From positions 1-42,875 of the IMG/VR virus record IMGVR_UViG_3300048848_000017: a stretch of 42,875 nucleotides of DNA; one strand, given 5' to 3'. Made by a program: the position numbers and the translations under genes. Shown piece after piece: positions 8,372-21,341 of this stretch; position 1 is the first letter of the stretch, and the number at the start of each line of letters is the position of its first letter. The stretch comes from a virus (lineage: Duplodnaviria; Caudoviricetes). The notes below the pieces were generated by a model. It saw only the letters and a list, made by a program, of their open reading frames with translations, was not told where the DNA came from and ran no database searches.

Positions 8372-8602
8372 CTATGCCGCTTTGTCGACGACCTCGAACA
8401 GGTCGTAGAAGTCGAGGTGCGGGAAGGCTTTGAGTAGTGCGGCGATGAACTGTTCGCCGGGTGCCGTGTGGCCGAGGAGGACTCGGCTGACGGTGGATTC
8501 GTTGACTTTCATTCGGCGGGCGAGGTCTCGTTTGGTGTCGAGATTGCTCATGCCCATGTACTTGAGGAGTTGTGTTTCGCGTAGGCGGATGGTGGCTGTC
8601 AT
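8372..8602 (-). CDS. Cro-like HTH protein
   Basis: DLARRMKVNESTVSRV HTH; AAAGGAGGT RBS; divergent from the repressor. Confidence 0.8.
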   Translation of the reverse strand: MTATIRLRETQLLKYMGMSNLDTKRDLARRMKVNESTVSRVLLGHTAPGEQFIAALLKAFPHLDFYDLFEVVDKAA

Positions 8603-8609
8603 GTCACCT

Positions 8610-8844
8610 CCTTTGCAAGTCCGCTAGCTGCTGTGTTTGCGTGCAAGCACTACGCTACGCCTGTGTGTGGCGTTTGCGCAAGCGCACACGCAAACCAATT
8701 TTGCGGGCGTGCGAATCACACGAGTGTCATTTTGCTGTCAAGGCTGCGGGGTGCGAAAACACATACGTGTAAGTCCCTCACCAGCCAGGTTTGCGTGCGT
8801 GCAAGCGGCGTGTCGCGGTGAAAACGTGTCCTAGCGTTATCGGC
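8610..8844. promoter_or_regulatory. Lysis/lysogeny switch region with TTGC...GCAA operator-like repeats and a leaderless repressor promoter
   Basis: TTTGCGTGCAAG, TTTGCGCAAG, TTTGCGGGCGTGCGAA, TTTGCGTGCGTGCAAG; -10 TAGCGT at 8832-8837, 7 nt before the ATG at 8845. Confidence 0.65.
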
Positions 8845-9258
8845 ATGACAAGTTTCAGTGATTGGGTCGACGACACGGCCCTGGCCATAGACGGCATCGA
8901 CAAGGATGCAGACATGGCACGACTCTTTGGGGTGCTCCCATCAACTGTCGCCAGGTGGCGCACCGCCGCCGGCCCACCCGACCGAGACACCCTGCGGAAG
9001 ATCTCGGAGGGGCTAGGTGTGCCGATGATCGTGGTCTTACAGCGTGCCGGTTTCCTCACCGAGAGCGAGGCGTCTGTCCGAGAAGTCGAGGTACCGCGGC
9101 GGCTCACCAACAGCGAGCTTGTGGCTGAGATCGACGCCCGGTTGCGGCTCTTGGACGGCGGCCAGGCGGGAGGGGGCGGACTCGATCGGGCGCACGCCGC
9201 AAACAGGGCTACTGCCGCGTCGGTGAAGGGCCTCAAGGTGGAGGGTCAGGGGGGCTAG
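8845..9258 (+). CDS. Immunity repressor (XRE-family HTH, no peptidase S24 domain)
   Basis: DADMARLFGVLPSTVARW...PDRDTLRKISEGLG HTH; divergent from cro; near the integrase. Confidence 0.8.
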   Translation: MTSFSDWVDDTALAIDGIDKDADMARLFGVLPSTVARWRTAAGPPDRDTLRKISEGLGVPMIVVLQRAGFLTESEASVREVEVPRRLTNSELVAEIDARLRLLDGGQAGGGGLDRAHAANRATAASVKGLKVEGQGG

Positions 9259-9363
9259 TTCGTCGGCTGTGAGCGGGGAGAAGTCGATCACTTCCATGAC
9301 GTCTGCGTAGCGGTGGAGCCAATAGTTGGCGTCGTTGTTGATGTCGTTTGCGTCGTGCGCCAT
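9037..9363 (-). CDS. Putative DNA-damage-inducible antirepressor (antisense overlap with the repressor 3' end)
   Basis: 108-aa ORF MAHDANDINN...; GGGAGG upstream; SOS box and PafBC motif upstream (alternative start 9393). Confidence 0.6.
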   Translation of the reverse strand: MAHDANDINNDANYWLHRYADVMEVIDFSPLTADELAPLTLHLEALHRRGSSPVCGVRPIESAPSRLAAVQEPQPGVDLSHKLAVGEPPRYLDFSDRRLALGEETGTL

Positions 9364-9393
9364 GGTTGTCCGGCACCCCTCCCAGATCGTCAT

Positions 9394-9409
9394 TCGAACT
9401 CTTGTTCGA
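9394..9409. promoter_or_regulatory. LexA (SOS) box
   Basis: TCGAAC-TCTT-GTTCGA, a perfect match to the actinobacterial consensus TCGAAC-N4-GTTCGA. Confidence 0.9.
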
Positions 9410-9411
9410 AC

Positions 9412-9433
9412 AACGTAGCTTATGGTCCCGACA
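9412..9433 (-). promoter_or_regulatory. PafBC / RecA-NDp promoter motif
   Basis: Minus strand reads TGTCGG-gaccataagc-TA-cgt-T, i.e. TGTCGG-N10-TA-N3-T. Confidence 0.8.
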
Positions 9434-9550
9434 CCGATCCGGACATTACCCCAACTACTGACCTACTGTGTCATTACTGAGCCTTATCAAACCAGCACTG
9501 GCACAAGCTGATTCAAACCGTATTCAGTTAGCTAAGATAAGGAACTAACG

Positions 9551-10030
9551 ATGAGTGGACCCTACGACCAACAACCCCCGCAGTGGCAGCAACCCCAATG
9601 GGGACCAGCCGGCCCACCACCGCCACCCAAGAAGAACAACCACCTCGTGTGGTGGCTCATCGGCGGCCTCGTCGCCTTCCTCGGGTTCTTCGCCATAGTC
9701 GGCGCAGTGTTCGGCGGATCAAGCGCCGATAACGACAGTCCCACCACCTCCACACCAGCGAGGGCGACAGTCGAGGAACCCGTAGACAACGGCGACTGGG
9801 CCATCCTCGCCTGCCACGACAGCATCGAAAACCAGATGAAAGACCCCGACAGCGCCGACTACAAGAACGAGACCGCCACCCGCGGCACCGGCCAGAACTA
9901 CACGGTGTCAGGGATGGTGAACGGCGCGAACTCCTACGGCGGGATGACCGGGTTCACGGCCTACACATGCACAGCCAGCCTCGACGCGGACGGCGAGACG
10001 ATGCGCGCCACCGCCAACATCCTGGAGTAG
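9551..10030 (+). CDS. Membrane-anchored protein, probably prophage-expressed
   Basis: Pro/Gln-rich N-terminus, one TM helix, extracytoplasmic domain with two Cys; AAGGAA RBS. Confidence 0.75.
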   Translation: MSGPYDQQPPQWQQPQWGPAGPPPPPKKNNHLVWWLIGGLVAFLGFFAIVGAVFGGSSADNDSPTTSTPARATVEEPVDNGDWAILACHDSIENQMKDPDSADYKNETATRGTGQNYTVSGMVNGANSYGGMTGFTAYTCTASLDADGETMRATANILE

Positions 10031-11233
10031 CTAGGCGATCAGCTTCGACAGTTCGCCGAGGGCCGCTCGGGTGAGGGTCTGGTCGACGTGCGCGTATCCG
10101 CGGTGCGCGGCGACGGAGGAGTGGCCGAGGAGTTGCATACGCACAGCCTCGTCCACGCCTGCGCCCTGGAGGAGGGTGGCTACGGTGTGGCGGGCGGAGT
10201 GCAGGGTAGGCACGTTACCGTCTGCGTCGGCCAGGCCCGCAGCAGTAAGGGTGTCTCGCCACGCTTTGGAGTCGTCGCGGTCGAGGAGTGGGGCGCCGCC
10301 GGGTCGTGTCCACACCAGACCTGTGCCCGTGGTGTTCGCTCGGTGAGCGAGTAGCGCCGCTTCGAGGGTGGGGATCATGGGGACGATCCGCCGGGACCGG
10401 GCCGTCTTCGGCGGCACGAGGCAGAAGGATCGCCACACGGGCCGGAAGTCGAACGCGGGCGGAACGTCGAACATGTCACGCGGGTACTGGTCGAACAATG
10501 GGCGTTGCGTCTTGGTCAGCTTGACCCGTTGGAGGGTCCAGGAGATGTCAATCATTTTGGTATCGAAGTCGACGCGCTCCCATTCGAGGCCAAGGCACTC
10601 ACCCTGGCGGGCGCCAGTCAGTAGGGCCATGGCTGTGCGGGAAACCATAGGGTCGTCGCCCAGGGTGGCGAGGTACTGGAAGAGTGCGCGGATGTCGGGA
10701 ATGGACATCGCTTCGCGCTCCTGGTGCAGGGCGGTGGGCCGGTCTACGCGGTCGCAGGGGTTGGACCGGATGAGCCCCTCACGCACGGCATCCTTGAGGG
10801 CTTTAGCGAGGACGTTGTAGGCGATCTGCGTGGTACGGGTGGAGCGGTGCCCCGAGATGGTGATTGTCATGCGTCGGATGTCACAGGGCTGAAGGGTGGC
10901 GAGGCGTTTGTGTCCTAGCTCAGGGATAAGGTGCGTCTTGACCACGGAGCGGTAGGTGGCGTAGGTGCGGGGCTTGAGTCGGGGTCTGGCGATCTCGTCG
11001 AGCCAGCGGACGAGCCATGATTCAACGGTGGCGGTGGGGGCGACGGGCATGAGGCCGTCGTCGATGTCCCGTTGGAGCTGCTTCAGCCTGGCGGCGACGA
11101 CGTTTCGGTCTCGCCCGGACACGGTCTTTTTGGTGCGAACTCCGTTGCGGCCCACGAGATTTACTGCGCCGATCCATACGCCGTCTGCTCGTTTGTAGAG
11201 TGCTCCATCGCCTTTCGGCCGGCGCTGTCCCAT
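10031..11233 (-). CDS. int: Tyrosine integrase
   Basis: RRPKGDGALYKRADG arm-binding N-terminus; catalytic GARQGE, LHSARH, LGHS, GYAH. Confidence 0.95.
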   Translation of the reverse strand: MGQRRPKGDGALYKRADGVWIGAVNLVGRNGVRTKKTVSGRDRNVVAARLKQLQRDIDDGLMPVAPTATVESWLVRWLDEIARPRLKPRTYATYRSVVKTHLIPELGHKRLATLQPCDIRRMTITISGHRSTRTTQIAYNVLAKALKDAVREGLIRSNPCDRVDRPTALHQEREAMSIPDIRALFQYLATLGDDPMVSRTAMALLTGARQGECLGLEWERVDFDTKMIDISWTLQRVKLTKTQRPLFDQYPRDMFDVPPAFDFRPVWRSFCLVPPKTARSRRIVPMIPTLEAALLAHRANTTGTGLVWTRPGGAPLLDRDDSKAWRDTLTAAGLADADGNVPTLHSARHTVATLLQGAGVDEAVRMQLLGHSSVAAHRGYAHVDQTLTRAALGELSKLIA

Positions 11234-11371
11234 GTTGTTTCCTCCCGGCGGTAGGGATTATCCCTATCGTTATGCCTATCTATAGCAGTCCTCGTGCGGT
11301 CAGGTCTAGACAAACCTTGCCTACCAGCACGTTTGACGGCTGCTTACCTGATAAGCATACTCTTCTATACC

Positions 11372-11417
11372 GCTTCCCAAGCTGCACACGCGGGTTCGAT
11401 TCCCGTCATCGGCTCCA
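11372..11417 (+). other. attP common core = 3' half of tRNA-Gly(CCC)
   Basis: GCTTCCCAAGC...GCGGGTTCGATTCCCGTCATCGGCTCCA: anticodon loop, T-arm and CCA with no 5' half; flanked by TGCCTATC-like arm repeats (11273-11280, 11459-11466). Confidence 0.9.
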
Positions 11418-11469
11418 GGTCAGTGCATGTTTCGGGGTTTCGGGTTAAGCCTAAGTTGTGCCTATCGGG

Positions 11470-11679
11470 TCAATGCATGATCTTGTCGGCGAGGAACACG
11501 GGCCACACCACGGCGATGAGTGCCATGATGGCGATGTCACCAGCGAGGCGCTTCCGTTTCTGTGGGTAGCGGATAGCCATACGTATCTCGCGGCAAGTGT
11601 CGGGGGTTGCCGCGACGACGATCACGAGGGTGCCAACTGAGTAGCCAATGAGGATTCCGAGCAGTAGCGCGCCGCTCAC
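11470..11679 (-). CDS. Small two-TM membrane protein
   Basis: Two hydrophobic segments; GTGA coupling. Confidence 0.6.
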   Translation of the reverse strand: MSGALLLGILIGYSVGTLVIVVAATPDTCREIRMAIRYPQKRKRLAGDIAIMALIAVVWPVFLADKIMH

Positions 11680-11819
11680 GGCAGAGGCTCGGGTTCGGCG
11701 GCGGTCTGTAGCGGCGCATCACACAGCGCATAGGAATCAGCGGCGTGGAGCCACACCGAGCCGTCGAGATATATCGCGTTGTGGCAATGCCAGCAGCTGG
11801 TAACGATGTAGTCGCTCAT
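11676..11819 (-). CDS. Small Cys/His protein (47 aa, MSDYIVTSCWHCH...)
   Basis: Strong GAAAGGAAG RBS; hand-translated. Confidence 0.6.
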   Translation of the reverse strand: MSDYIVTSCWHCHNAIYLDGSVWLHAADSYALCDAPLQTAAEPEPLP

Positions 11820-11859
11820 GGCTTCCTTTCGATTGGGGGTGCATCTGACAACGCGGGTT

Positions 11860-12252
11860 TCATAGCCAGAGCACAGCGGCCACGTTGATGAGCATGTGCA
11901 GGATGTTGTCGGCGAGGATCAGTAGCCAGAACGCGAGCCAAGGCGGGGTGTCGTCGGGGTATCCGGTCGCAGTGTGCGCGGGGCGGAATGCCCTCGGTGC
12001 GAACTGGTTCTTGAACCACACCACATGCCGAGCGAGCCTGTGGCGGTCGATGACGGCGTGCGTGCCGACGATCACCAGCAGCGCGAGCGGCGATTGAGTG
12101 ATCAGCAGGAACGGCAACCCGTAGGTGACGGCGTGTGCGATGGCAGGCCACCACCGCTTCGTCTTCTCCGTAGCCATCCAGTGCGACTGGATCAGGTAGT
12201 CGCCCACGAGATGAGCCAGGAGGGTGAGGGCTATCGCGGACGCAACGCTCAT
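11860..12252 (-). CDS. DUF3307-like membrane protein
   Basis: LLAHLVGDYLIQSHWMA...HAVID...DNILH signature. Confidence 0.8.
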   Translation of the reverse strand: MSVASAIALTLLAHLVGDYLIQSHWMATEKTKRWWPAIAHAVTYGLPFLLITQSPLALLVIVGTHAVIDRHRLARHVVWFKNQFAPRAFRPAHTATGYPDDTPPWLAFWLLILADNILHMLINVAAVLWL

Positions 12253-12629
12253 GTCGGTTCTCCTTCGCGGGTGAGTACGTCAAGTAGGACGCCTGCGTAT
12301 GCGCGGTTGGTGGTGCGGGTGTGGAGGTCGTCTACGTTGTCGCTGGCGGTCCAGAGGTGGGCGAGGTGGTGGATGGCGGCGAGTTTGGTTTCAGCGGCCC
12401 GAAGCGCAGCGACAAGAGCGGGTAGGTCGGTCCGGGCGTGCGCGATGAACTCAGCTTCGGCCGGGAAGTGCTCGGGACCGGTGAATGTCTCAGCAACGAG
12501 GACCAGGCCGTCGTCATTGCCGACGATTTCCTGCGGGTAGCCCTTCTCGTTCGCTTGCCATCTCCAGGGGCCTTTGGTCGCGGCGTTGACTCTCGCCTCA
12601 ATGGCACTGACATCTAGTTCGTCAGCCAT
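12249..12629 (-). CDS. Ead/Ea22-like hypothetical protein
   Basis: AIEARVNAATKGPW...AEFIAHARTDLPALV motif. Confidence 0.7.
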   Translation of the reverse strand: MADELDVSAIEARVNAATKGPWRWQANEKGYPQEIVGNDDGLVLVAETFTGPEHFPAEAEFIAHARTDLPALVAALRAAETKLAAIHHLAHLWTASDNVDDLHTRTTNRAYAGVLLDVLTREGEPT

Positions 12630-12870
12630 TAGTGCCTCCGATGATGCGCTCTAGGACGCGACGTCCGGATGGGGTGAGGTCGCCGTGGTGGGTGAGTTCG
12701 ATTAATGCCGCGCTTAGGCGTTGGTTCTTGCCGGTGCCAGACTCTTCCAGTTGCCGAACGCGGGCGATGAGATCGGTGATGTTGGTTCGGGCTATGTCGA
12801 TGTCCCAGCTCGTGTATCCAGCCGCTCGGGCTTCGATGGCGTCGAGGTCGGGTGCGTCAGGGGAACTCAC
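12622..12870 (-). CDS. Hypothetical protein (Ead-like N-terminus, duplicated C-terminal module)
   Basis: DLDAIEARA...; C-terminus shared with 16558-16857. Confidence 0.65.
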   Translation of the reverse strand: MSSPDAPDLDAIEARAAGYTSWDIDIARTNITDLIARVRQLEESGTGKNQRLSAALIELTHHGDLTPSGRRVLERIIGGTNG

Positions 12871-13049
12871 GAAGACACCTCGGGCGAGCGAGACGGGCGG
12901 CGGTCACAGTTAAGGTGACGGTTCTGTAGGTAATGAGCGAACCCGGCATGCTCGAAGCAGTAGCGCGCCCCGTCGTACTCCTCATAGCCGAGGCGGCACG
13001 GGGAGGGCTCCATTGGGCATCCGGGACTGGGGCAGATGCAGACGCTCAT
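12867..13049 (-). CDS. Small Cys-rich protein
   Basis: 60-aa coupled ORF. Confidence 0.55.
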   Translation of the reverse strand: MSVCICPSPGCPMEPSPCRLGYEEYDGARYCFEHAGFAHYLQNRHLNCDRRPSRSPEVSS

Positions 13050-13339
13050 GGTGTTGTCCCTTCGGGGTTGAGTTCAGCATCGGAATACAGCAGGCGGTCG
13101 GTACCGGTCGGCCAGTCAGCGTGGCCCCCGTATCCGTCGCGGCAGTTGGTGCAGCGGTATGAGCCGTCTGGGCGTTGGACTCGCTGATGTTTGGCACGCA
13201 GCGGTGCTAGGGCCTCACGGGCACCCTCCACCCACTGCTCCGAGTCTGAGTATTCGAACTCCCAGTCCTCGGCGTGGCGACTCTTCGTTGGGTCAGCTCG
13301 CCATAGTCGGAACGCAGCATCCTCGGCGGGGTCGGTCAT
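13046..13339 (-). CDS. Hypothetical protein, MTDPA...AREALAPLR family
   Basis: Paralogous to 16065-16424. Confidence 0.7.
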   Translation of the reverse strand: MTDPAEDAAFRLWRADPTKSRHAEDWEFEYSDSEQWVEGAREALAPLRAKHQRVQRPDGSYRCTNCRDGYGGHADWPTGTDRLLYSDAELNPEGTTP

Positions 13340-13701
13340 CTCGGCTCCTCGGGGGTGACAGGACGGACAGCAGCAGCGGAAGCGGCGAGGAGGGCAGCAG
13401 CGAGTTCGCGGGCATCGTCAGCCGTCATGCGCGGATCTTCGAGGTAGCAGCGGACCTTGCCACTGCCGATTGTCGCTGTGACTTCTCGGCCGTTCCATGT
13501 CTCGAAGCCGTCACCCACTTCGTCGGCTTCGGGTAGTTCTACCGCTACTACACCCGCCTCCACCAACATGGACTCAACATGAGCAGCGTGGAGGGTGCGG
13601 AGATCGGGACCGGAAACAGCGAAGACAGCGCCGCAGAGGCAATCCACGCGGTCGTCTTCATTCCAGCCGTGAGCTTCGAGTGTCTCCGTGAACCTGCTCA
13701 C
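13336..13701 (-). CDS. Hypothetical protein
   Basis: CLCG...HAAHV N-terminus; DARELAAALLAA C-terminus common in actinophage ORFs. Confidence 0.65.
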   Translation of the reverse strand: MSRFTETLEAHGWNEDDRVDCLCGAVFAVSGPDLRTLHAAHVESMLVEAGVVAVELPEADEVGDGFETWNGREVTATIGSGKVRCYLEDPRMTADDARELAAALLAASAAAVRPVTPEEPR

Positions 13702-14063
13702 GACACACCACCAGCCTTCTCGAATAGTTCCGCGAGGTCTACCAGATCATTGACAAGGTGGTACGGGTCTTCGGGCGCAGCTTCGGTGCCGCTGATGATT
13801 CGGCCTGCACGGTAGAGGACGCGGGCAGCGTGGGGGAAGTGGGCGCGCAGTTCGTCCCGTTCGGCGATGGCCATGTCCCGTTCCTCTCGGACGGTGCGGT
13901 AGGTGCGCTCCCCGTACTCAGCTTCAGCGGCTCGGGTCTCGGCGGTTTCCAGCGCAGCCAGAAGAGAGCGGGCAAGCGGCTCAGGATTCAGCGCCAAGTC
14001 GAGGTTGTTGGGGTCGGCCAGTGCTTCCCGTGCTCTCGCGGCGATGTCAGAGGAATCAGTCAC
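13698..14063 (-). CDS. Hypothetical protein
   Basis: 121-aa coupled ORF. Confidence 0.65.
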   Translation of the reverse strand: MTDSSDIAARAREALADPNNLDLALNPEPLARSLLAALETAETRAAEAEYGERTYRTVREERDMAIAERDELRAHFPHAARVLYRAGRIISGTEAAPEDPYHLVNDLVDLAELFEKAGGVS

Positions 14064-14242
14064 AGCAACTCACATCCAGCGTCGGTGAACTCCTCAGTCC
14101 ACGTGCTCTCACACGAGCAATACGGACGGTGCAACACCTTTCGCCCAATCGAGCGCGCATGAGCTTTCGCGGCCTCCCGTTCGTGATACGCGGCAAGGGC
14201 GGCAGGATCGCGGAAGAAGGTCTCGGGTCGGACGTTAGCCAT
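14060..14242 (-). CDS. Small hypothetical protein (MANVRPETFF...)
   Basis: GAGAGGA RBS; GTGA coupling to the next gene. Confidence 0.55.
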   Translation of the reverse strand: MANVRPETFFRDPAALAAYHEREAAKAHARSIGRKVLHRPYCSCESTWTEEFTDAGCELL

Positions 14243-14270
14243 TGGGGGTTTCCTCTCGGGGTAGGGGGAA

Positions 14271-14564
14271 TCACACAGGACGATGGAGCACACGGGCAGA
14301 GAGTGAGATGTCGGCGGTCTCATGGCTACGTCTCGAACCGGTCTCGTACCAGAGGTTGCAGGCGGACTTCTCCCAAGTACCGCCCTGCTCCGACTGAACC
14401 ACGGTGCCTTCGGGTAGTGCGTTGAGTTCGGCTTCGGTGGTGACCGTGGACGCCCGCACCAACGCATCGGCGATGAGGGACGCCGCAGCGGGAATCCCGC
14501 CTTGGTGACCGAATGGTTCATCCAGCTCGGACAGCGCATCTGCGATCACGTCTAGCTCGTGCAT
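14271..14564 (-). CDS. Hypothetical protein (MHELDVI..., ELNALPEGTVV motif)
   Basis: GAAAGGAA RBS. Confidence 0.7.
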   Translation of the reverse strand: MHELDVIADALSELDEPFGHQGGIPAAASLIADALVRASTVTTEAELNALPEGTVVQSEQGGTWEKSACNLWYETGSRRSHETADISLSARVLHRPV

Positions 14565-14603
14565 GGTGTTCCTTTCGTTCGGTGCATCTGACAACACCAG
14601 CAA

Positions 14604-14807
14604 TCAGACGGCGTCTCGGGCCTCTAGCCAATCCGCTGCGTCGCTCAGTGCGTCTGCCCATGCCCGTGCGTCTGCCACAGACCGGATGGGGGTCGGCATT
14701 CCCAGCGGCATGATCTGTGGTTCACCCCAGTTGTCTTTGAGTGTGATGCTGAGCTGCGGTCGGGAGTGCTGCTCTTTCAGCGGGACTCGGATCGTGTGGT
14801 CGCTCAT
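14604..14807 (-). CDS. Hypothetical protein (MSDHTIRV...)
   Basis: GAAAGGAAA RBS. Confidence 0.65.
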   Translation of the reverse strand: MSDHTIRVPLKEQHSRPQLSITLKDNWGEPQIMPLGMPTPIRSVADARAWADALSDAADWLEARDAV

Positions 14808-14868
14808 GGTTTCCTTTCGGGGTGGGTAGTGCGGGGGCATCTGACAACACAGGTTTCAGATGGGCGGG

Positions 14869-15138
14869 TCACCAGCCGTCGCCCTCAAATGCGTAGTGTT
14901 CGCACGGCTTCAGATCGGTACCGGCCATGTCAACCGCTGGATACCGAATGTCCCGCAGCACAGGCAGATCCGTTTCCTTGTGGCCCCACTCGGTGAACAC
15001 TTCGGGGTCGCCGAACTCGCCACCCAAGTCGGACCTACTGGCGATGACGCCATACGGGTCAGCGAGCCCGTTGTAGCTACGGCCATAGCGGTCGACCAGA
15101 GCCTCACGCTCCTCGCATGTGATCTTCTGCCAACTCAT
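14869..15138 (-). CDS. Hypothetical protein (MSWQKITC...)
   Basis: ATGA coupling; plausible composition. Confidence 0.6.
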   Translation of the reverse strand: MSWQKITCEEREALVDRYGRSYNGLADPYGVIASRSDLGGEFGDPEVFTEWGHKETDLPVLRDIRYPAVDMAGTDLKPCEHYAFEGDGW

Positions 15139-15302
15139 GGGCGGAACCTGCCCAGCGGCACGAACCGATCCTCGAAATCTGCGAACCCTTCGCGGGGGCT
15201 GAAGGTGTAGCCACCAGCAGGAGCGCCGTCTGCGTGAGGATGACCAGCGCGTACGCCTGACGTGTGGACCCAAGGGATTGGGTCATTCTGGATCCCGTTC
15301 AT
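15135..15302 (-). CDS. Small hypothetical protein (55 aa, MNGIQNDPIPW...)
   Basis: Hand-translated; GAAGGGAA RBS. Confidence 0.45.
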   Translation of the reverse strand: MNGIQNDPIPWVHTSGVRAGHPHADGAPAGGYTFSPREGFADFEDRFVPLGRFRP

Positions 15303-15411
15303 GCCGCTTTCCCTTCCGTGAAGTACATGCCCTCAACCACCACAACCTCCAACCACATCTGACAACACCCGTACCCACAAGCGGGGAGCCCGAAGACCCC
15401 CCGCCCGGCCC

Positions 15412-15609
15412 TCAATCCACGAAGCCGAAGAAGCAACGCGCCGGGTTCGTCCGGTCCCTGAAGGTGAAGTTCTGGCCGTCCGGGTAGTCCAGGCGGCTGA
15501 CCATCCCGATCTCCTCCGCGAGGATCTCCGCCCGGTCCAATCCGTGGTCCAGGTCGCGGACGGTTTCGGTGTAGGTTCCCTCGGACTTGAAGCTGATGGT
15601 GAGTGTCAT
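15412..15609 (-). CDS. Hypothetical protein, first gene of the leftward accessory operon
   Basis: 65-aa ORF followed by a UUCG-loop hairpin at about 15381-15405. Confidence 0.6.
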   Translation of the reverse strand: MTLTISFKSEGTYTETVRDLDHGLDRAEILAEEIGMVSRLDYPDGQNFTFRDRTNPARCFFGFVD

Positions 15610-15643
15610 TGCCTGGCCTTCCGGTTGGTGTCTGGGTATGAAG

Positions 15644-15732
15644 AAAGTATGGCACAGGTGTCATGACACCGCAAGGTTTCGAACAGGCCGCAAGGGGTGG
15701 TAGGTGTCATGACACCGTGATACGCTGTTGGC
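15644..15732. promoter_or_regulatory. Divergent promoters with two perfect 14-bp palindromes GGTGTCATGACACC
   Basis: Palindromes at 15657-15670 and 15703-15716; extended -10 TGaTACGCT ending at 15726, 6 nt before the ATG at 15733. Confidence 0.75.
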
Positions 15733-16068
15733 ATGGAAAACAAAGAGCCGCAACAGATACCCGTCGACCGACCGTCATTGCCTCAAGCGCCCTGCCCGTA
15801 CGGATCATGCGACAGGAGGTACGGACACGACGGCGATCACAGGTGCAGGTGCGGGCGGTTGGTCGACGTGATCGTGGACGAGAAAACCTGCGCTTGGCAC
15901 CGACGACCGACCACCCCCGACAACGAAGCCTTGGACGCAATCGCACTGGCGGTACGCCCGTGGGGTGGTGTGTGGTCCGATCAAGACGGAATCCTGGAGA
16001 GCATCGGGAACATCGTCGAGTCGACCGGTCGCACCGTGGATTGGGAGTATGAGGGGGAAGACCTGTGA
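15733..16068 (+). CDS. Cys/His-rich hypothetical protein
   Basis: 111-aa ORF, probably leaderless. Confidence 0.65.
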   Translation: MENKEPQQIPVDRPSLPQAPCPYGSCDRRYGHDGDHRCRCGRLVDVIVDEKTCAWHRRPTTPDNEALDAIALAVRPWGGVWSDQDGILESIGNIVESTGRTVDWEYEGEDL

Positions 16069-16424
16069 CCGACCCTGCGATCGAAGCCGCACAGAGGGCA
16101 TGGGACCGCGTTGACCTAGAGATTGAGCTGGAGCGTCACCAGCCGGTCGTACGCATGGACGACGGCCGGATTGGGGGCTGTCAATGCATGGATCGTGTCT
16201 TCTACCTAGGTCGCGAGGACTGGAGCACGCACCTCGCCGACGTGGTGGAGCAGCATGCACTCTCCGCTGCCCGCGAGGCTCTAGCGCCGCTGCGAAAGTT
16301 CCACATGCCGTACAACACGGGATTCAAGGGAGGGCCTGTCTATTGCACTACCTGCCGTGGCAGCCAACTCGTGCCATGGCCCTGCGACCAAGCCCGTCTC
16401 ATCTACCCGAGTGAGGAACTGTGA
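16065..16424 (+). CDS. Hypothetical protein, MTDPA...AREALAPLR family
   Basis: CTTC...PWPC...LIYPSEEL; paralog of 13046-13339. Confidence 0.7.
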   Translation: MTDPAIEAAQRAWDRVDLEIELERHQPVVRMDDGRIGGCQCMDRVFYLGREDWSTHLADVVEQHALSAAREALAPLRKFHMPYNTGFKGGPVYCTTCRGSQLVPWPCDQARLIYPSEEL

Positions 16425-16561
16425 TGCCTGAATCGGAGCCGACGAACGTCCAGCACATGGAGATGTACTGCCGCGCCACCAAGCCGGGACCAGCCAAGTA
16501 CGTGGAGCTGATCATGTTGGCGCGCAACCTCGACCGCCTACAGGAAGAGGGCGAGCTGTGA
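16424..16561 (+). CDS. Small hypothetical protein (45 aa, MPESEPTN...)
   Basis: TGATG and GTGA coupling. Confidence 0.5.
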   Translation: MPESEPTNVQHMEMYCRATKPGPAKYVELIMLARNLDRLQEEGEL

Positions 16562-16857
16562 GCGACCTCGACGCCCTACGCGCCGCAGCTGGCATCGAAG
16601 GTAGGGTCACCGCACTCACCACTGGAGTCAAGGGCGGCGATCACTGGTACCTCGTCGCTGACCGTGAGGCCATAGCTTGGATCTCCGCAAACGACGGCGA
16701 AGACGAGGGGCTGCGTCAACCCCGCGCCGAACTGATCGCCGCAGCCGTGAACGCCTTGCCTCGCATCGAGGCGGCTCTAGCCGAACTCACCCACCACGGC
16801 GACCTCACCCCGTCAGGACGTCGCGTCCTAGAGCGCATCATCGGTGGCGCGTCATGA
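16558..16857 (+). CDS. Hypothetical protein
   Basis: AELIAAAVNALP motif; C-terminus shared with 12622-12870. Confidence 0.65.
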   Translation: MSDLDALRAAAGIEGRVTALTTGVKGGDHWYLVADREAIAWISANDGEDEGLRQPRAELIAAAVNALPRIEAALAELTHHGDLTPSGRRVLERIIGGAS

Positions 16858-17123
16858 GCGCCGACAACCCACCTCCGGTAACGAAGTTCAAGTACACGCT
16901 GACGGTCTACGGCAACAGTCACGAGGAGGTCGAGGACGAGGTGCTGTTCATGACCCGTGGCGGCTACCTTCTCGACTCTAAGTATGGCGAGCGCGACGAG
17001 TTCAGAGTCACAGGCGGAAGGTCCACCCGCATCCTTGAGCACACCAACCCGGAGCAGACACCCGAGGCGTACATGCGGGAACTCAAGACGTGGTCATTCC
17101 GGCCTAAGGGTGGCGCGTCATGA
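16854..17123 (+). CDS. Hypothetical protein (MSADNPPPV...)
   Basis: ATGA coupling. Confidence 0.6.
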   Translation: MSADNPPPVTKFKYTLTVYGNSHEEVEDEVLFMTRGGYLLDSKYGERDEFRVTGGRSTRILEHTNPEQTPEAYMRELKTWSFRPKGGAS

Positions 17124-17143
17124 CACCCGCTAAAGTGCGACGT

Positions 17144-17305
17144 GTGCCGAACCAGCCCAAGACACCACAGCGAACGTTCCGCATACCCGACGACGAATAC
17201 ATCCCCGCCAAAGCCGCAGCAGAAACCAACGGCGAATCCCTCACCGACGTCATCCGCCGCGCACTCGTCGGCTACACCAAACGCACCGAACGGAAACACC
17301 AGTGA
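17144..17305 (+). CDS. Ribbon-helix-helix DNA-binding protein
   Basis: PKTPQRTFRIPDD...AAETNGESLTDVIRRAL beta-alpha-alpha pattern; -10 TAAAGT 7 nt before the GTG (alternative start 17120). Confidence 0.8.
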   Translation: MPNQPKTPQRTFRIPDDEYIPAKAAAETNGESLTDVIRRALVGYTKRTERKHQ

Positions 17306-20237: not shown

Positions 20238-20833
20238 CAAGACTCCTTGGTTGGTTGTGCGCGCATAAGGCGCTCGTACTGGCTGTCAGCTTCGGCAAGC
20301 CAGTCGATGAACCTGCCGGTTTTTGCGTAGTGAGAACGCATCCCCATGGCGCGATTGCAAGCCAAGCAACGGCGCCCGCCGTCCCGATCGCCTCGCAGGT
20401 TCGGTGCTTCGAGCTTGTGCCCCCGTGGGCAGTGCGTTCGGTTTGCGAGGTGATGGGTGCCGTGTCGAAGCTTGTCGAGATTGTTCTCTGATTTCGTGCC
20501 CCAGCACAGGTTGTCGGCGCTTGAGTTGAGTTGGTTCCCGTCGAGGTGGCGCACCTCTTGTCCTGGCTCTGGTTCGCCATGAAATGCCCGCGCAACGAGG
20601 CGGTGGATGGTGAAGCACCTAGGCTTCATTCCGCCCTTCAGCTTGATGGTGGGGTAACCACTCCTGGGGTTAATCCCGACTTTGAGAACCTTAGCTGCCA
20701 CTGGCATAGGCCAGCCGTTCCGTCTGATCACGGTCCGCGTGACAGACCGCACGTGGCCCAGGTTTGAGACTTCGTAAGAATCTTCGTAGCCGGGTACTGC
20801 ACGCCATTCTTCAGTGCGTTGGGTAGCATCCAT
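20237..20833 (-). CDS. NUMOD4-HNH homing endonuclease
   Basis: EEWRAVPGYEDSYEVSNLGHVRS (NUMOD4); HRLVARAF...VRHLDGNQLNSSADNLCW (HNH); THCPRGH; AAGGAGG RBS. Confidence 0.92.
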   Translation of the reverse strand: MDATQRTEEWRAVPGYEDSYEVSNLGHVRSVTRTVIRRNGWPMPVAAKVLKVGINPRSGYPTIKLKGGMKPRCFTIHRLVARAFHGEPEPGQEVRHLDGNQLNSSADNLCWGTKSENNLDKLRHGTHHLANRTHCPRGHKLEAPNLRGDRDGGRRCLACNRAMGMRSHYAKTGRFIDWLAEADSQYERLMRAQPTKES

Positions 20834-20913
20834 TGCTAGCCCCTCCTTGGTTGAGTCAAGTGGGTGGGTCAGTGGCCGCGTGGTGTTTCCAGCACCTGCG
20901 GCCACGTCCAATT

Positions 20914-20991
20914 CTACAGTAAGACAGGCGTTTTCGGGGTCTGCCATTGGCCGGTTTTGGGGTGGCGGGGTATGTCGTGGACAGCAGGCAT
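20914..20991 (-). pseudogene. Truncated duplicate of the tail-gene 5' end (MPAVHDIPRHPKTGQW...*)
   Basis: 12 of the first 15 aa are identical to the start of 17649-20237. Confidence 0.85.
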
Positions 20992-21341
20992 CAGGGCTCC
21001 TCGGGTTCGGGCGCAGGGGGTGGGTCGGTGATCGTGTAGCCGAAGCGGCCGAACACGTCGGCATGACTGGAGATGTCGGAGAACTGGAACAGCGCCGCCA
21101 AGCCTTCGCCCTCGTACGCTCCGGTTGCGTCCACCGCGAACACTTCAGCGCCGTGCGCGACCCGGACTTCCCCGTGCGCCTCCATCCACTGCGGGAGCTG
21201 CGGAATGTCGACGTCCGCCAACGGGCTCAAGTCACAAACGATGACGTACTCAACACCACCCAGCGGTGGGGCGAGTTGGTAGTGGGTGGCGACACCAGCC
21301 CACGACGCGGTGCCGGTGGGCAAGGGAGTTGCTGTTGGCAT
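20991..21341 (-). CDS. Conserved tail-region hypothetical protein
   Basis: TAATG coupling to the minor tail gene; ...GYTI C-terminus. Confidence 0.7.
   Translation of the reverse strand: MPTATPLPTGTASWAGVATHYQLAPPLGGVEYVIVCDLSPLADVDIPQLPQWMEAHGEVRVAHGAEVFAVDATGAYEGEGLAALFQFSDISSHADVFGRFGYTITDPPPAPEPEEP

Follow-up and report, generated by a model that had tools for sequence, protein, structure and literature searches.

A candidate DNA-damage induction module with stacked PafBC and LexA elements antisense to a phage immunity repressor

A RecA-cleavable domain is lacking from many immunity repressors of actinophages, and the literature searched gave no account of how the respective prophages sense DNA damage. 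Several other systems inactivate a repressor by means of a partner protein: Tum of coliphage 186 is a LexA-controlled antirepressor, SinI is a small helical antirepressor of the XRE repressor SinR, the ImmR/ImmA systems of ICEBs1-type elements combine a repressor with a neighbouring inactivator gene, and the ImmA/IrrE M78 peptidases are a known repressor-inactivating class. With respect to the promoters involved in damage responses, a -26/-10 promoter without a -35 element needs PafBC activated by single-stranded DNA, and LexA that occupies a start site has to undergo RecA*-mediated cleavage.

According to the accessible text of the cited papers, GfoA and GfhA of the Salmonella phages Gifsy-1 and Gifsy-3 are LexA-repressed antirepressors of non-cleavable repressors (PMC3121763), and in the AimX/AimC system of arbitrium phages AimX has been proposed to replace the partner C-terminal domain of the XRE repressor (10.1101/2025.11.23.689978). 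The same applies to the promoter elements: the motif tGTCgg-N10-tA-N3-T comprises a -26 element and a SigA -10 element without a -35 element (PMC8635444), and the LexA consensus is TCGAAC-N4-GTTCGA (PMC3381160). Dual control of host genes by PafBC and LexA has been published (PMC8223512, PMC8682763, PMC8151990, PMC3381160). The ruvC, Rv2719c and 13E12 genes of M. tuberculosis carry RecA-NDp together with an SOS box, and for ruvC and Rv2719c RecA_NDp is described as giving most of the regulation, mainly independently of RecA, despite the SOS boxes (PMC3381160). The RuvC protein is reported as missing both in recA and in pafBC mutants (PMC8151990). The genes recA (P1/P2) and imuA' are reported to receive both signals, with quinolones favouring PafBC (PMC8682763).

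Immunity cassette and stacked promoter

The window, that is the whole stretch of DNA that was analysed, comprises 42,875 nt and represents a siphovirus-type genome with genes for terminase, portal, tape measure, lysin, RecE/RecT-like proteins and a tyrosine integrase, as deduced from Pfam and ORF scans. The capsid protein is 88.6% identical to that of Gordonia phage TinyDot, from which we infer a Gordonia-like host, and a soil metagenome, the top read match, may be the source of the phage. TinyDot, the closest cultured relative by capsid, contains a different cassette, and the exact PafBC motif is absent in the 21 kb of its sequence that were read. Searches for tRNA genes and Rfam families gave no match in the 42,875 nt. 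Upstream of the integrase gene, positions 11371-11420 resemble what we take to be the 3' half of a tRNA gene and are likely to be the attP core; ARAGORN detected no whole tRNA there. About 20 small early-type genes without a known family occupy positions 11470-17300, beyond the integrase and between attP and the tail genes, with a plus-strand minority at 15733-16857, and a NUMOD4-HNH endonuclease is encoded at 20240-21064 within the tail gene region.

The features of the immunity cassette are given below, together with the evidence on which each assignment is based. Sequences used for comparison are P0003 and P0012 for the repressor, P0155 and P0156 for the antisense ORF, and X2, a 37-kb contig of a related phage that covers the locus and shows 19 letter differences in 9170-9498, 15 of which are listed.

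8372-8602, minus strand: cro-like HTH gene, first in the early lytic operon and divergent from the repressor gene (Pfam HTH_3 above cut-off, PHROG 3642)
8632-8806, no strand assigned: set of four related 17-nt repeats, at 8632, 8678, 8700 and 8790, between cro and the repressor gene (repeat families D7 and I1)
8845-9258, plus strand: immunity repressor of 137 aa (Pfam HTH_3, PHROG 3949/5301, AF2 model)
9178-9258, plus strand: repressor tail, aa 112-137, with changes mostly silent in the antisense frame (P0003, P0012, X2)
9037-9363, minus strand: antisense ORF of 108 aa, candidate antirepressor (without Pfam, PHROG or Atlas family)
9154-9363, minus strand: conserved core of the antisense ORF, about aa 1-70 (homologs P0155/P0156, silent codons in X2)
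9376-9383, minus strand: weak purine-rich tract resembling a Shine-Dalgarno sequence, 12 nt upstream of the ATG (sequence)
9394-9409, no strand assigned: perfect LexA (SOS) box of the actinobacterial type, covering the predicted start site (exact match; PMC3381160)
9412-9417, minus strand: SigA -10 element TA-N3-T (exact match; PMC8635444)
9428-9433, minus strand: PafBC -26 element TGTCGG (exact match, unchanged in X2; PMC8635444)
9551-10030, plus strand: predicted membrane-anchored protein, function unassigned (PHROG 2320)
10031-11233, minus strand: tyrosine integrase (PF00589, PF14659)

With up to four mismatches, the 17-nt repeat has five matches in the genome, four of them inside the cro-repressor spacer, and the spacer repeats are likely to be the operators of the repressor. 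This spacer differs in X2 by at least 30 changes among those listed. The gene at 9551-10030 is cargo of the lysogeny cassette and lies outside the switch; X2 contains 348 additional letters between this gene and the integrase gene (at 10030/10031). No member of the S24, M78 or Ant families was detected among the 71 ORFs scanned, which comprise 6 plus 65 ORFs picked by hand from ORF lists, one of which holds 124 candidates, many of them shadows.

The repressor consists of an XRE HTH domain (aa 4-76), a helix (aa 89-109) with the motif L-T-N-x-E-L and a low-confidence tail, and its AF2 model combines a 434/P22-type HTH with the same helix and tail. HTH_3 is the sole Pfam match and PHROG 3949/5301 are annotated as 'transcriptional repressor', while an S24 autocleavage domain is absent in Pfam, the PHROGs and the AF2 model; a fold search gave no match at E<=0.001. 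These data agree with the preliminary description of the locus, which had reported a 137-aa repressor devoid of an S24 domain.

The exact motif TGTCGG-N10-TA-N3-T at 9433-9412 on the minus strand faces the antisense ORF, and the perfect box TCGAAC-N4-GTTCGA is located at 9394-9409. Both had been noted in the preliminary description, and each turned out to be the sole exact match in the 42,875-nt genome; their identification as a PafBC promoter and a LexA box likewise matches the accessible text of the respective papers (PMC8635444, PMC3381160). The box follows the -10 element, with a gap of 2 nt between the PafBC motif and the LexA box. On the basis of nucleotide composition, 0.18 PafBC motifs, 0.0017 perfect boxes and about 2e-6 stacked pairs are expected per genome. 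The same PafBC motif begins 28-30 nt ahead of an apparently leaderless ATG in eight cultured phages, and with this spacing the transcription start is predicted at about 9403-9405, inside the LexA box, in line with the position near 9405 that had been proposed previously. A sigma-70 scan of 8500-10100 revealed no -35/-10 promoter, the fold of the leader RNA is not unusual (z -0.43), and no RNA read sets are listed for this stretch.

In the comparison with X2, for which 15 of the 19 letter differences are listed, the 30-nt leader shows 7 substitutions and 3 indels, the LexA box a single change, which affects the N4 spacer and leaves both arms intact, and 9410-9450 none. The motif comparison with X2 relates to one close relative, in which low divergence runs on to 9498 and does not single out the -26 element; promoter conservation is seen in X2 alone, P0155 and P0156 having been compared as proteins.

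Antisense reading frame and repressor tail

The antisense ORF overlaps the final 222 nt of the repressor gene with its codons in register. Since this is the frame that is most often open by chance, with a probability of about 0.40 for 74 open codons in this genome, the length of the ORF proves nothing. The homologs P0155 and P0156 begin at the same start and show 82% and 74% identity across about 70 aa, and because they end at 74 and 85 aa, the conserved part corresponds to about aa 1-70 (9154-9363), with an overlap of about 105 nt. Residues 71-108 are the shadow of the repressor, and the distal stretch of about 115 nt of the overlap is shadow read-through. The overlap of 222 nt given in the preliminary description was measured correctly, but about half of it is an expected shadow frame, and as a sign of selection the overlap was rejected for its distal half, in view of the homolog ends and the chance of an open frame. 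An upstream ATG at 9393, which would extend the protein to 118 aa, was also rejected: it lies at the edge of the box, is lost in X2, and the homologs begin at MAHD.

Six of the 15 listed differences from X2 fall into the ORF, where they affect five codons, all of which remain silent (chance about 0.0008); three single-base losses near the start add up to one codon. In the repressor tail, 7 of 10 changes found in P0003 and P0012 can be accommodated without altering the antisense residue, as compared with 5 of the 28 changes that P0003 shows in aa 1-99 (Fisher p 0.005), and in the more distant P0004 and P0005 this holds for 6 of 12 and 4 of 10 tail changes, respectively. The repressor of X2 carries E133Q, a change of two letters that retains Leu in the antisense ORF. 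The substitution patterns thus indicate that about aa 1-70 of the ORF are a selected protein, since the homologs are kept, the changed X2 codons are silent and the changes in the repressor tail spare the ORF, and that the repressor tail (aa 112-137) is in turn shaped by the antisense gene, as its shadow. P0012 joins a Yoshi-like HTH to the C-terminal tail of the repressor of this genome, which suggests that the antisense module may move by recombination within the repressor gene.

Searches of Pfam, the PHROGs and the ESM Atlas assigned the ORF to no family, with no usable match and no homology to a described antirepressor family, and the protein does not contain an HExxH motif. Its aa 1-45 had no match in cultured phages, and no relatives of the repressor or the ORF were confirmed in IMG/VR and the JGI metagenomes. 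Short contigs from the runs X3 and X4 match only 9298-9348, the YWLHRY region of the ORF, and then diverge; they appear from this match to be further ORF homologs in other phages. With respect to a relationship with the repressor, aa 17-37 of the ORF align weakly with the E-A-x-V...L-T-N-x-E-L segment, at positions 73-94 of the repressor profile, in a post hoc match that is reached by 0.3% of shuffles (hhalign P 0.0094, probability 4%). The pairwise score of ORF and repressor does not exceed that of shuffles, 75% of which reach it (7% and 3% for the homologs), and the complex prediction for repressor aa 1-111 with the ORF yielded a score of 0.00, the fold of the partner being uncertain, and speaks neither for nor against an interaction.

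Recurrence in phages and host genomes

A motif scan of actinophages had been suggested in the preliminary description, and the layout indeed recurs, in nine of nine cultured phages and with nine IMG/VR repressors. IMG/VR was searched with four pattern scans, the last three of which yielded 113 loci in 55 clusters; the exact spacing pattern of this genome had no match. The GC-rich loci include nine different short XRE repressors that are encoded on the strand opposite to the motif and terminate at a distance of 69-150 nt from it. An ORF of 35-72 aa overlaps eight of them by 32-153 nt; the exception, L227, has no good ORF. Raw counts are not enriched (36 loci with the true spacing versus 48 mis-spaced loci). 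An immunity-cassette context was found in 12 of 26 true-spacing clusters and in none of 26 mis-spaced control clusters, as judged with profiles that were derived from phages found via two IMG/VR loci and that favour these families.

The cultured set comprises nine Arthrobacter and Propionibacterium phages, which were collected as tblastn matches to two IMG/VR repressors, one per apparent group, from 19 and 93 records, and were not selected by motif. All nine contain, antisense to the repressor, a PafBC element matching at 5-6 of 6 positions, a full -10 element and a LexA box matching at 9-11 of 12 positions, as well as an overlapping antisense ORF of 41-78 aa. The layout occurred in 1 of 1260 shuffles, and the sense strand never reached 9 of 12 LexA positions. 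The minus-strand geometry is shared by all nine phages despite different downstream genes. The small ORFs correspond to Sarge 31, Zucker 41, Maja 31 and ArV2 gp33 and are unannotated in Bridgette, BrayBeast, MargaretKali, Hestia and Anatole; a small-ORF motif is conserved across the Arthrobacter phages with an overlap of just 24 nt. Five of nine IMG/VR and six of nine cultured small ORFs resemble pieces of XRE repressors with scores above those of 95% of shuffles, a control that destroys helix periodicity, and the series runs from complete HTH paralogs (Maja 31, Zucker 41) down to stubs of 35-46 aa. These similarities are suggestive of an origin of the small ORFs of the Arthrobacter/Propionibacterium-type family as repressor-derived pieces. 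No homology was detected between the ORF of the present genome and the small ORFs of other phages, and the function of the former is therefore carried over by position only. The layout of promoter, antisense ORF and non-cleavable repressor is widespread in actinophages. Stacked or near-stacked promoters were also observed ahead of other phage genes, namely a 60-aa ORF converging on a lytic operon (L015/L031), a recombinase-like gene (L016) and a 49-aa basic ORF converging on a cro operon (L020).

The same slot and promoter type serve ImmA-like peptidases in other phages, often without LexA. Five more IMG/VR clusters encode an ImmA/IrrE M78 peptidase with its ATG inside the LexA box; at L026, L027, L219, L230, L233 and L241 the peptidase ATG is part of the box (...ATGTTCG, Met-Phe), so that operator and start codon share bases. 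Nine cultured peptidase phages, drawn from 79 peptidase matches, contain TGTCRG 28-30 nt ahead of the peptidase gene in eight cases, a full -10 element in two and a LexA box in none. BritBrat, Phistory, Lucky10, Spooky, OneDirection, Attis, Che9c and PhorbesPhlower (L325-L331, L333) have an apparently leaderless peptidase gene, and the -10 element is imperfect in six of these eight. Among members of the family of the present repressor, L195 and L201 contain a PafBC motif driving an ImmA-like gene, and the distant relative L192 contains a PafBC motif only. The stacked motif was found antisense to none of the more distant relatives at 44 loci, including the cultured phages Yoshi and CCUG48898T-2; many of these loci are probably chromosomal regulators. 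In REQ3 (L001), an unannotated antisense ORF of 136-147 aa at about 2350-2800 on the minus strand converges on the repressor, the opposite strand being annotated instead, with a PafBC-like motif matching at 4 of 6 positions and a LexA box about 60 nt further upstream. Yoshi gp56 (L002, 2313-2729), present in 11 Mycobacterium phage records, is antisense to the repressor and overlaps its 3' end, with neither a PafBC nor a LexA motif that could be recognised. Its homology to the present ORF was rejected (E 0.69).

The stacked promoter type is present in about 4000 metagenome stretches. Of 401 genomes belonging to the family of a Rhodococcus genome, 105 contain the stacked spacing, a tally that includes the unpublished genome G072, and none gave a match with the reversed control. 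Inspection by eye placed the genes behind the metagenome promoters among DUF222/13E12, ruvC, dnaB and polymerase-operon types, and the recognisable genes at the metagenome and genome loci are presumably host repair-type genes. Profile searches of 119 metagenome loci and 30 genome loci that carry the stacked motif identified no immunity cassette. The stacked promoter is a common host design borrowed by the phage and not an invention of the phage.

Proposed mechanism and comparison with known systems

We consider it fairly probable that the locus is a DNA-damage induction module and that the ORF product binds the repressor and would lift repression of the cro/lytic operon. The antirepressor function is deduced mainly from position, because the ORF fills the slot that is taken by a protease of the repressor-cleaving type in other phages. 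Upon DNA damage, PafBC would recruit the polymerase to the -26/-10 promoter and thus be the input that is obligatory. LexA, bound over the start site, would act as a second lock that lowers leak and leaves after cleavage via RecA*. The ORF protein might then pair, as a repressor mimic, with the C-terminal oligomerisation helix of the repressor; such decoy pairing, by analogy to the proposal for AimX, is our best guess. Inactivation of the repressor would derepress the cro/lytic operon, and convergent transcription into the 3' end of the repressor gene may add to the effect.

The preliminary description had postulated an AND gate of PafBC and LexA. The geometry fits such a gate, but its strictness is weakened because ruvC and Rv2719c are reported to be regulated mainly independently of RecA (PMC3381160) and because sister cassettes use PafBC alone. 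Whether the gate is strict is thus close to an even call, with a slight leaning towards the other version, in which PafBC would dominate and LexA would exert partial damping. Somewhat more doubtful, and put forward tentatively, is the general scheme in which temperate actinophages whose repressors are non-cleavable have in many cases linked induction to PafBC, with a large subset, including this phage, adding the LexA lock. The two sensors would then form an AND gate, the output of which would be a tiny antisense decoy derived from the repressor. The repressor would be hit by both decoy and convergent transcription, and unrelated decoys would have been recruited to the slot independently.

It is unlikely that the promoter is damage-induced while the small protein targets host division, LexA or excision and induction proceeds by another route. 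Such a target would suit an ORF without family or fold and with weak likeness to the repressor, as well as the stacked promoters in front of unrelated phage genes (L015, L016, L020), but the position converging on the repressor, which is fixed across unrelated phages, and the interchangeability with ImmA peptidases in this slot speak against it, and no other inducer family was found among the 71 ORFs scanned. It is likewise rather improbable that transcription itself is the effector, with damage-induced convergent or antisense RNA cutting repressor synthesis and the peptide being secondary. The silence of all five changed ORF codons in X2 (from 15 of 19 differences listed), the sparing of the ORF by the repressor tail and the small-ORF motif kept in Arthrobacter phages at 24 nt of overlap argue for a protein, even though all cases retain a promoter directed into the 3' end of the repressor gene, L227 has no clear ORF and no minus-strand terminator-like site was called in 8500-9400. 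A LexA box serving the plus-strand gene at 9551 or read-through of the repressor gene, next to an incidental PafBC motif, is very unlikely: the box is palindromic and chance would supply 0.18 single PafBC motifs in this genome, but the 2-nt spacing equals that of host stacked promoters, and the minus-strand geometry is found in nine of nine cultured phages, whose downstream genes differ. That the arrangement is vestigial or due to chance and the ORF a shadow, as the often open in-register frames (0.40 for 74 codons) and the unenriched raw IMG/VR counts (36 versus 48) would suggest, is hardly credible in view of the joint chance of about 2e-6, the conserved protein and box and the cassette context (12/26 versus 0/26).

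If the induction module operates as proposed, it would provide a specific, general and cheaply testable mechanism for the waking of dormant actinophages after DNA damage, the cultured phages with this layout being available from collections and growing on harmless hosts. PafBC would then be a signal for prophage induction, and phage annotation would gain a class of antisense minigenes that has been missed. Agent-specific induction would also be predicted, since quinolones are reported to favour PafBC (PMC8682763). The preliminary description knew of no report of this combination as a prophage switch, and neither such a report nor any account of a prophage switch controlled by PafBC was found in the literature searched; subscription journals and supplements could hold a mention. 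The accessible text of two actinophage preprints (10.64898/2025.12.12.693979, 10.64898/2026.10.29.762952) contains no such mechanism. Both ingredients, dual host control and LexA-run antirepressors, are known, and their combined use as a prophage switch appears to be new.

The promoter of this phage has two cis elements in common with the host promoters of ruvC, Rv2719c, 13E12, recA and imuA', whereas its target is a phage lysogeny switch and not a repair gene. For recA and imuA', two separate starts in an OR-like arrangement are described (PMC8682763), whereas a single promoter bears both elements here. The ImmR/ImmA systems and the PafBC-driven ImmA cassettes of Gordonia and Mycobacterium phages resemble the locus in combining a repressor devoid of an S24 domain with an inactivator-type gene in the same slot, and the latter cassettes also share the promoter type. 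In contrast to the ImmA systems, no M78 peptidase is present here (71 ORFs scanned), and the ORF is antisense and without HExxH. AimX and SinI share with the present candidate the proposed use of a small helical antirepressor in place of the partner's C-terminal domain, with binding being predicted and no homology shown in the present case; unlike this promoter, AimX is under AimR peptide control. The likeness to GfoA/GfhA of the Gifsy phages and to Tum comprises a repressor without an autocleavage domain, a small gene behind a LexA box and a predicted damage-triggered inactivation by protein binding, with no sequence similarity to this ORF detected in Pfam and the PHROGs. Unlike the Gifsy genes, which are described as lying outside the immunity region (PMC3121763), the gene is located inside it, antisense to and overlapping the repressor gene, and its promoter, unlike those of the Gifsy and Tum systems, is of the activator-dependent PafBC type.
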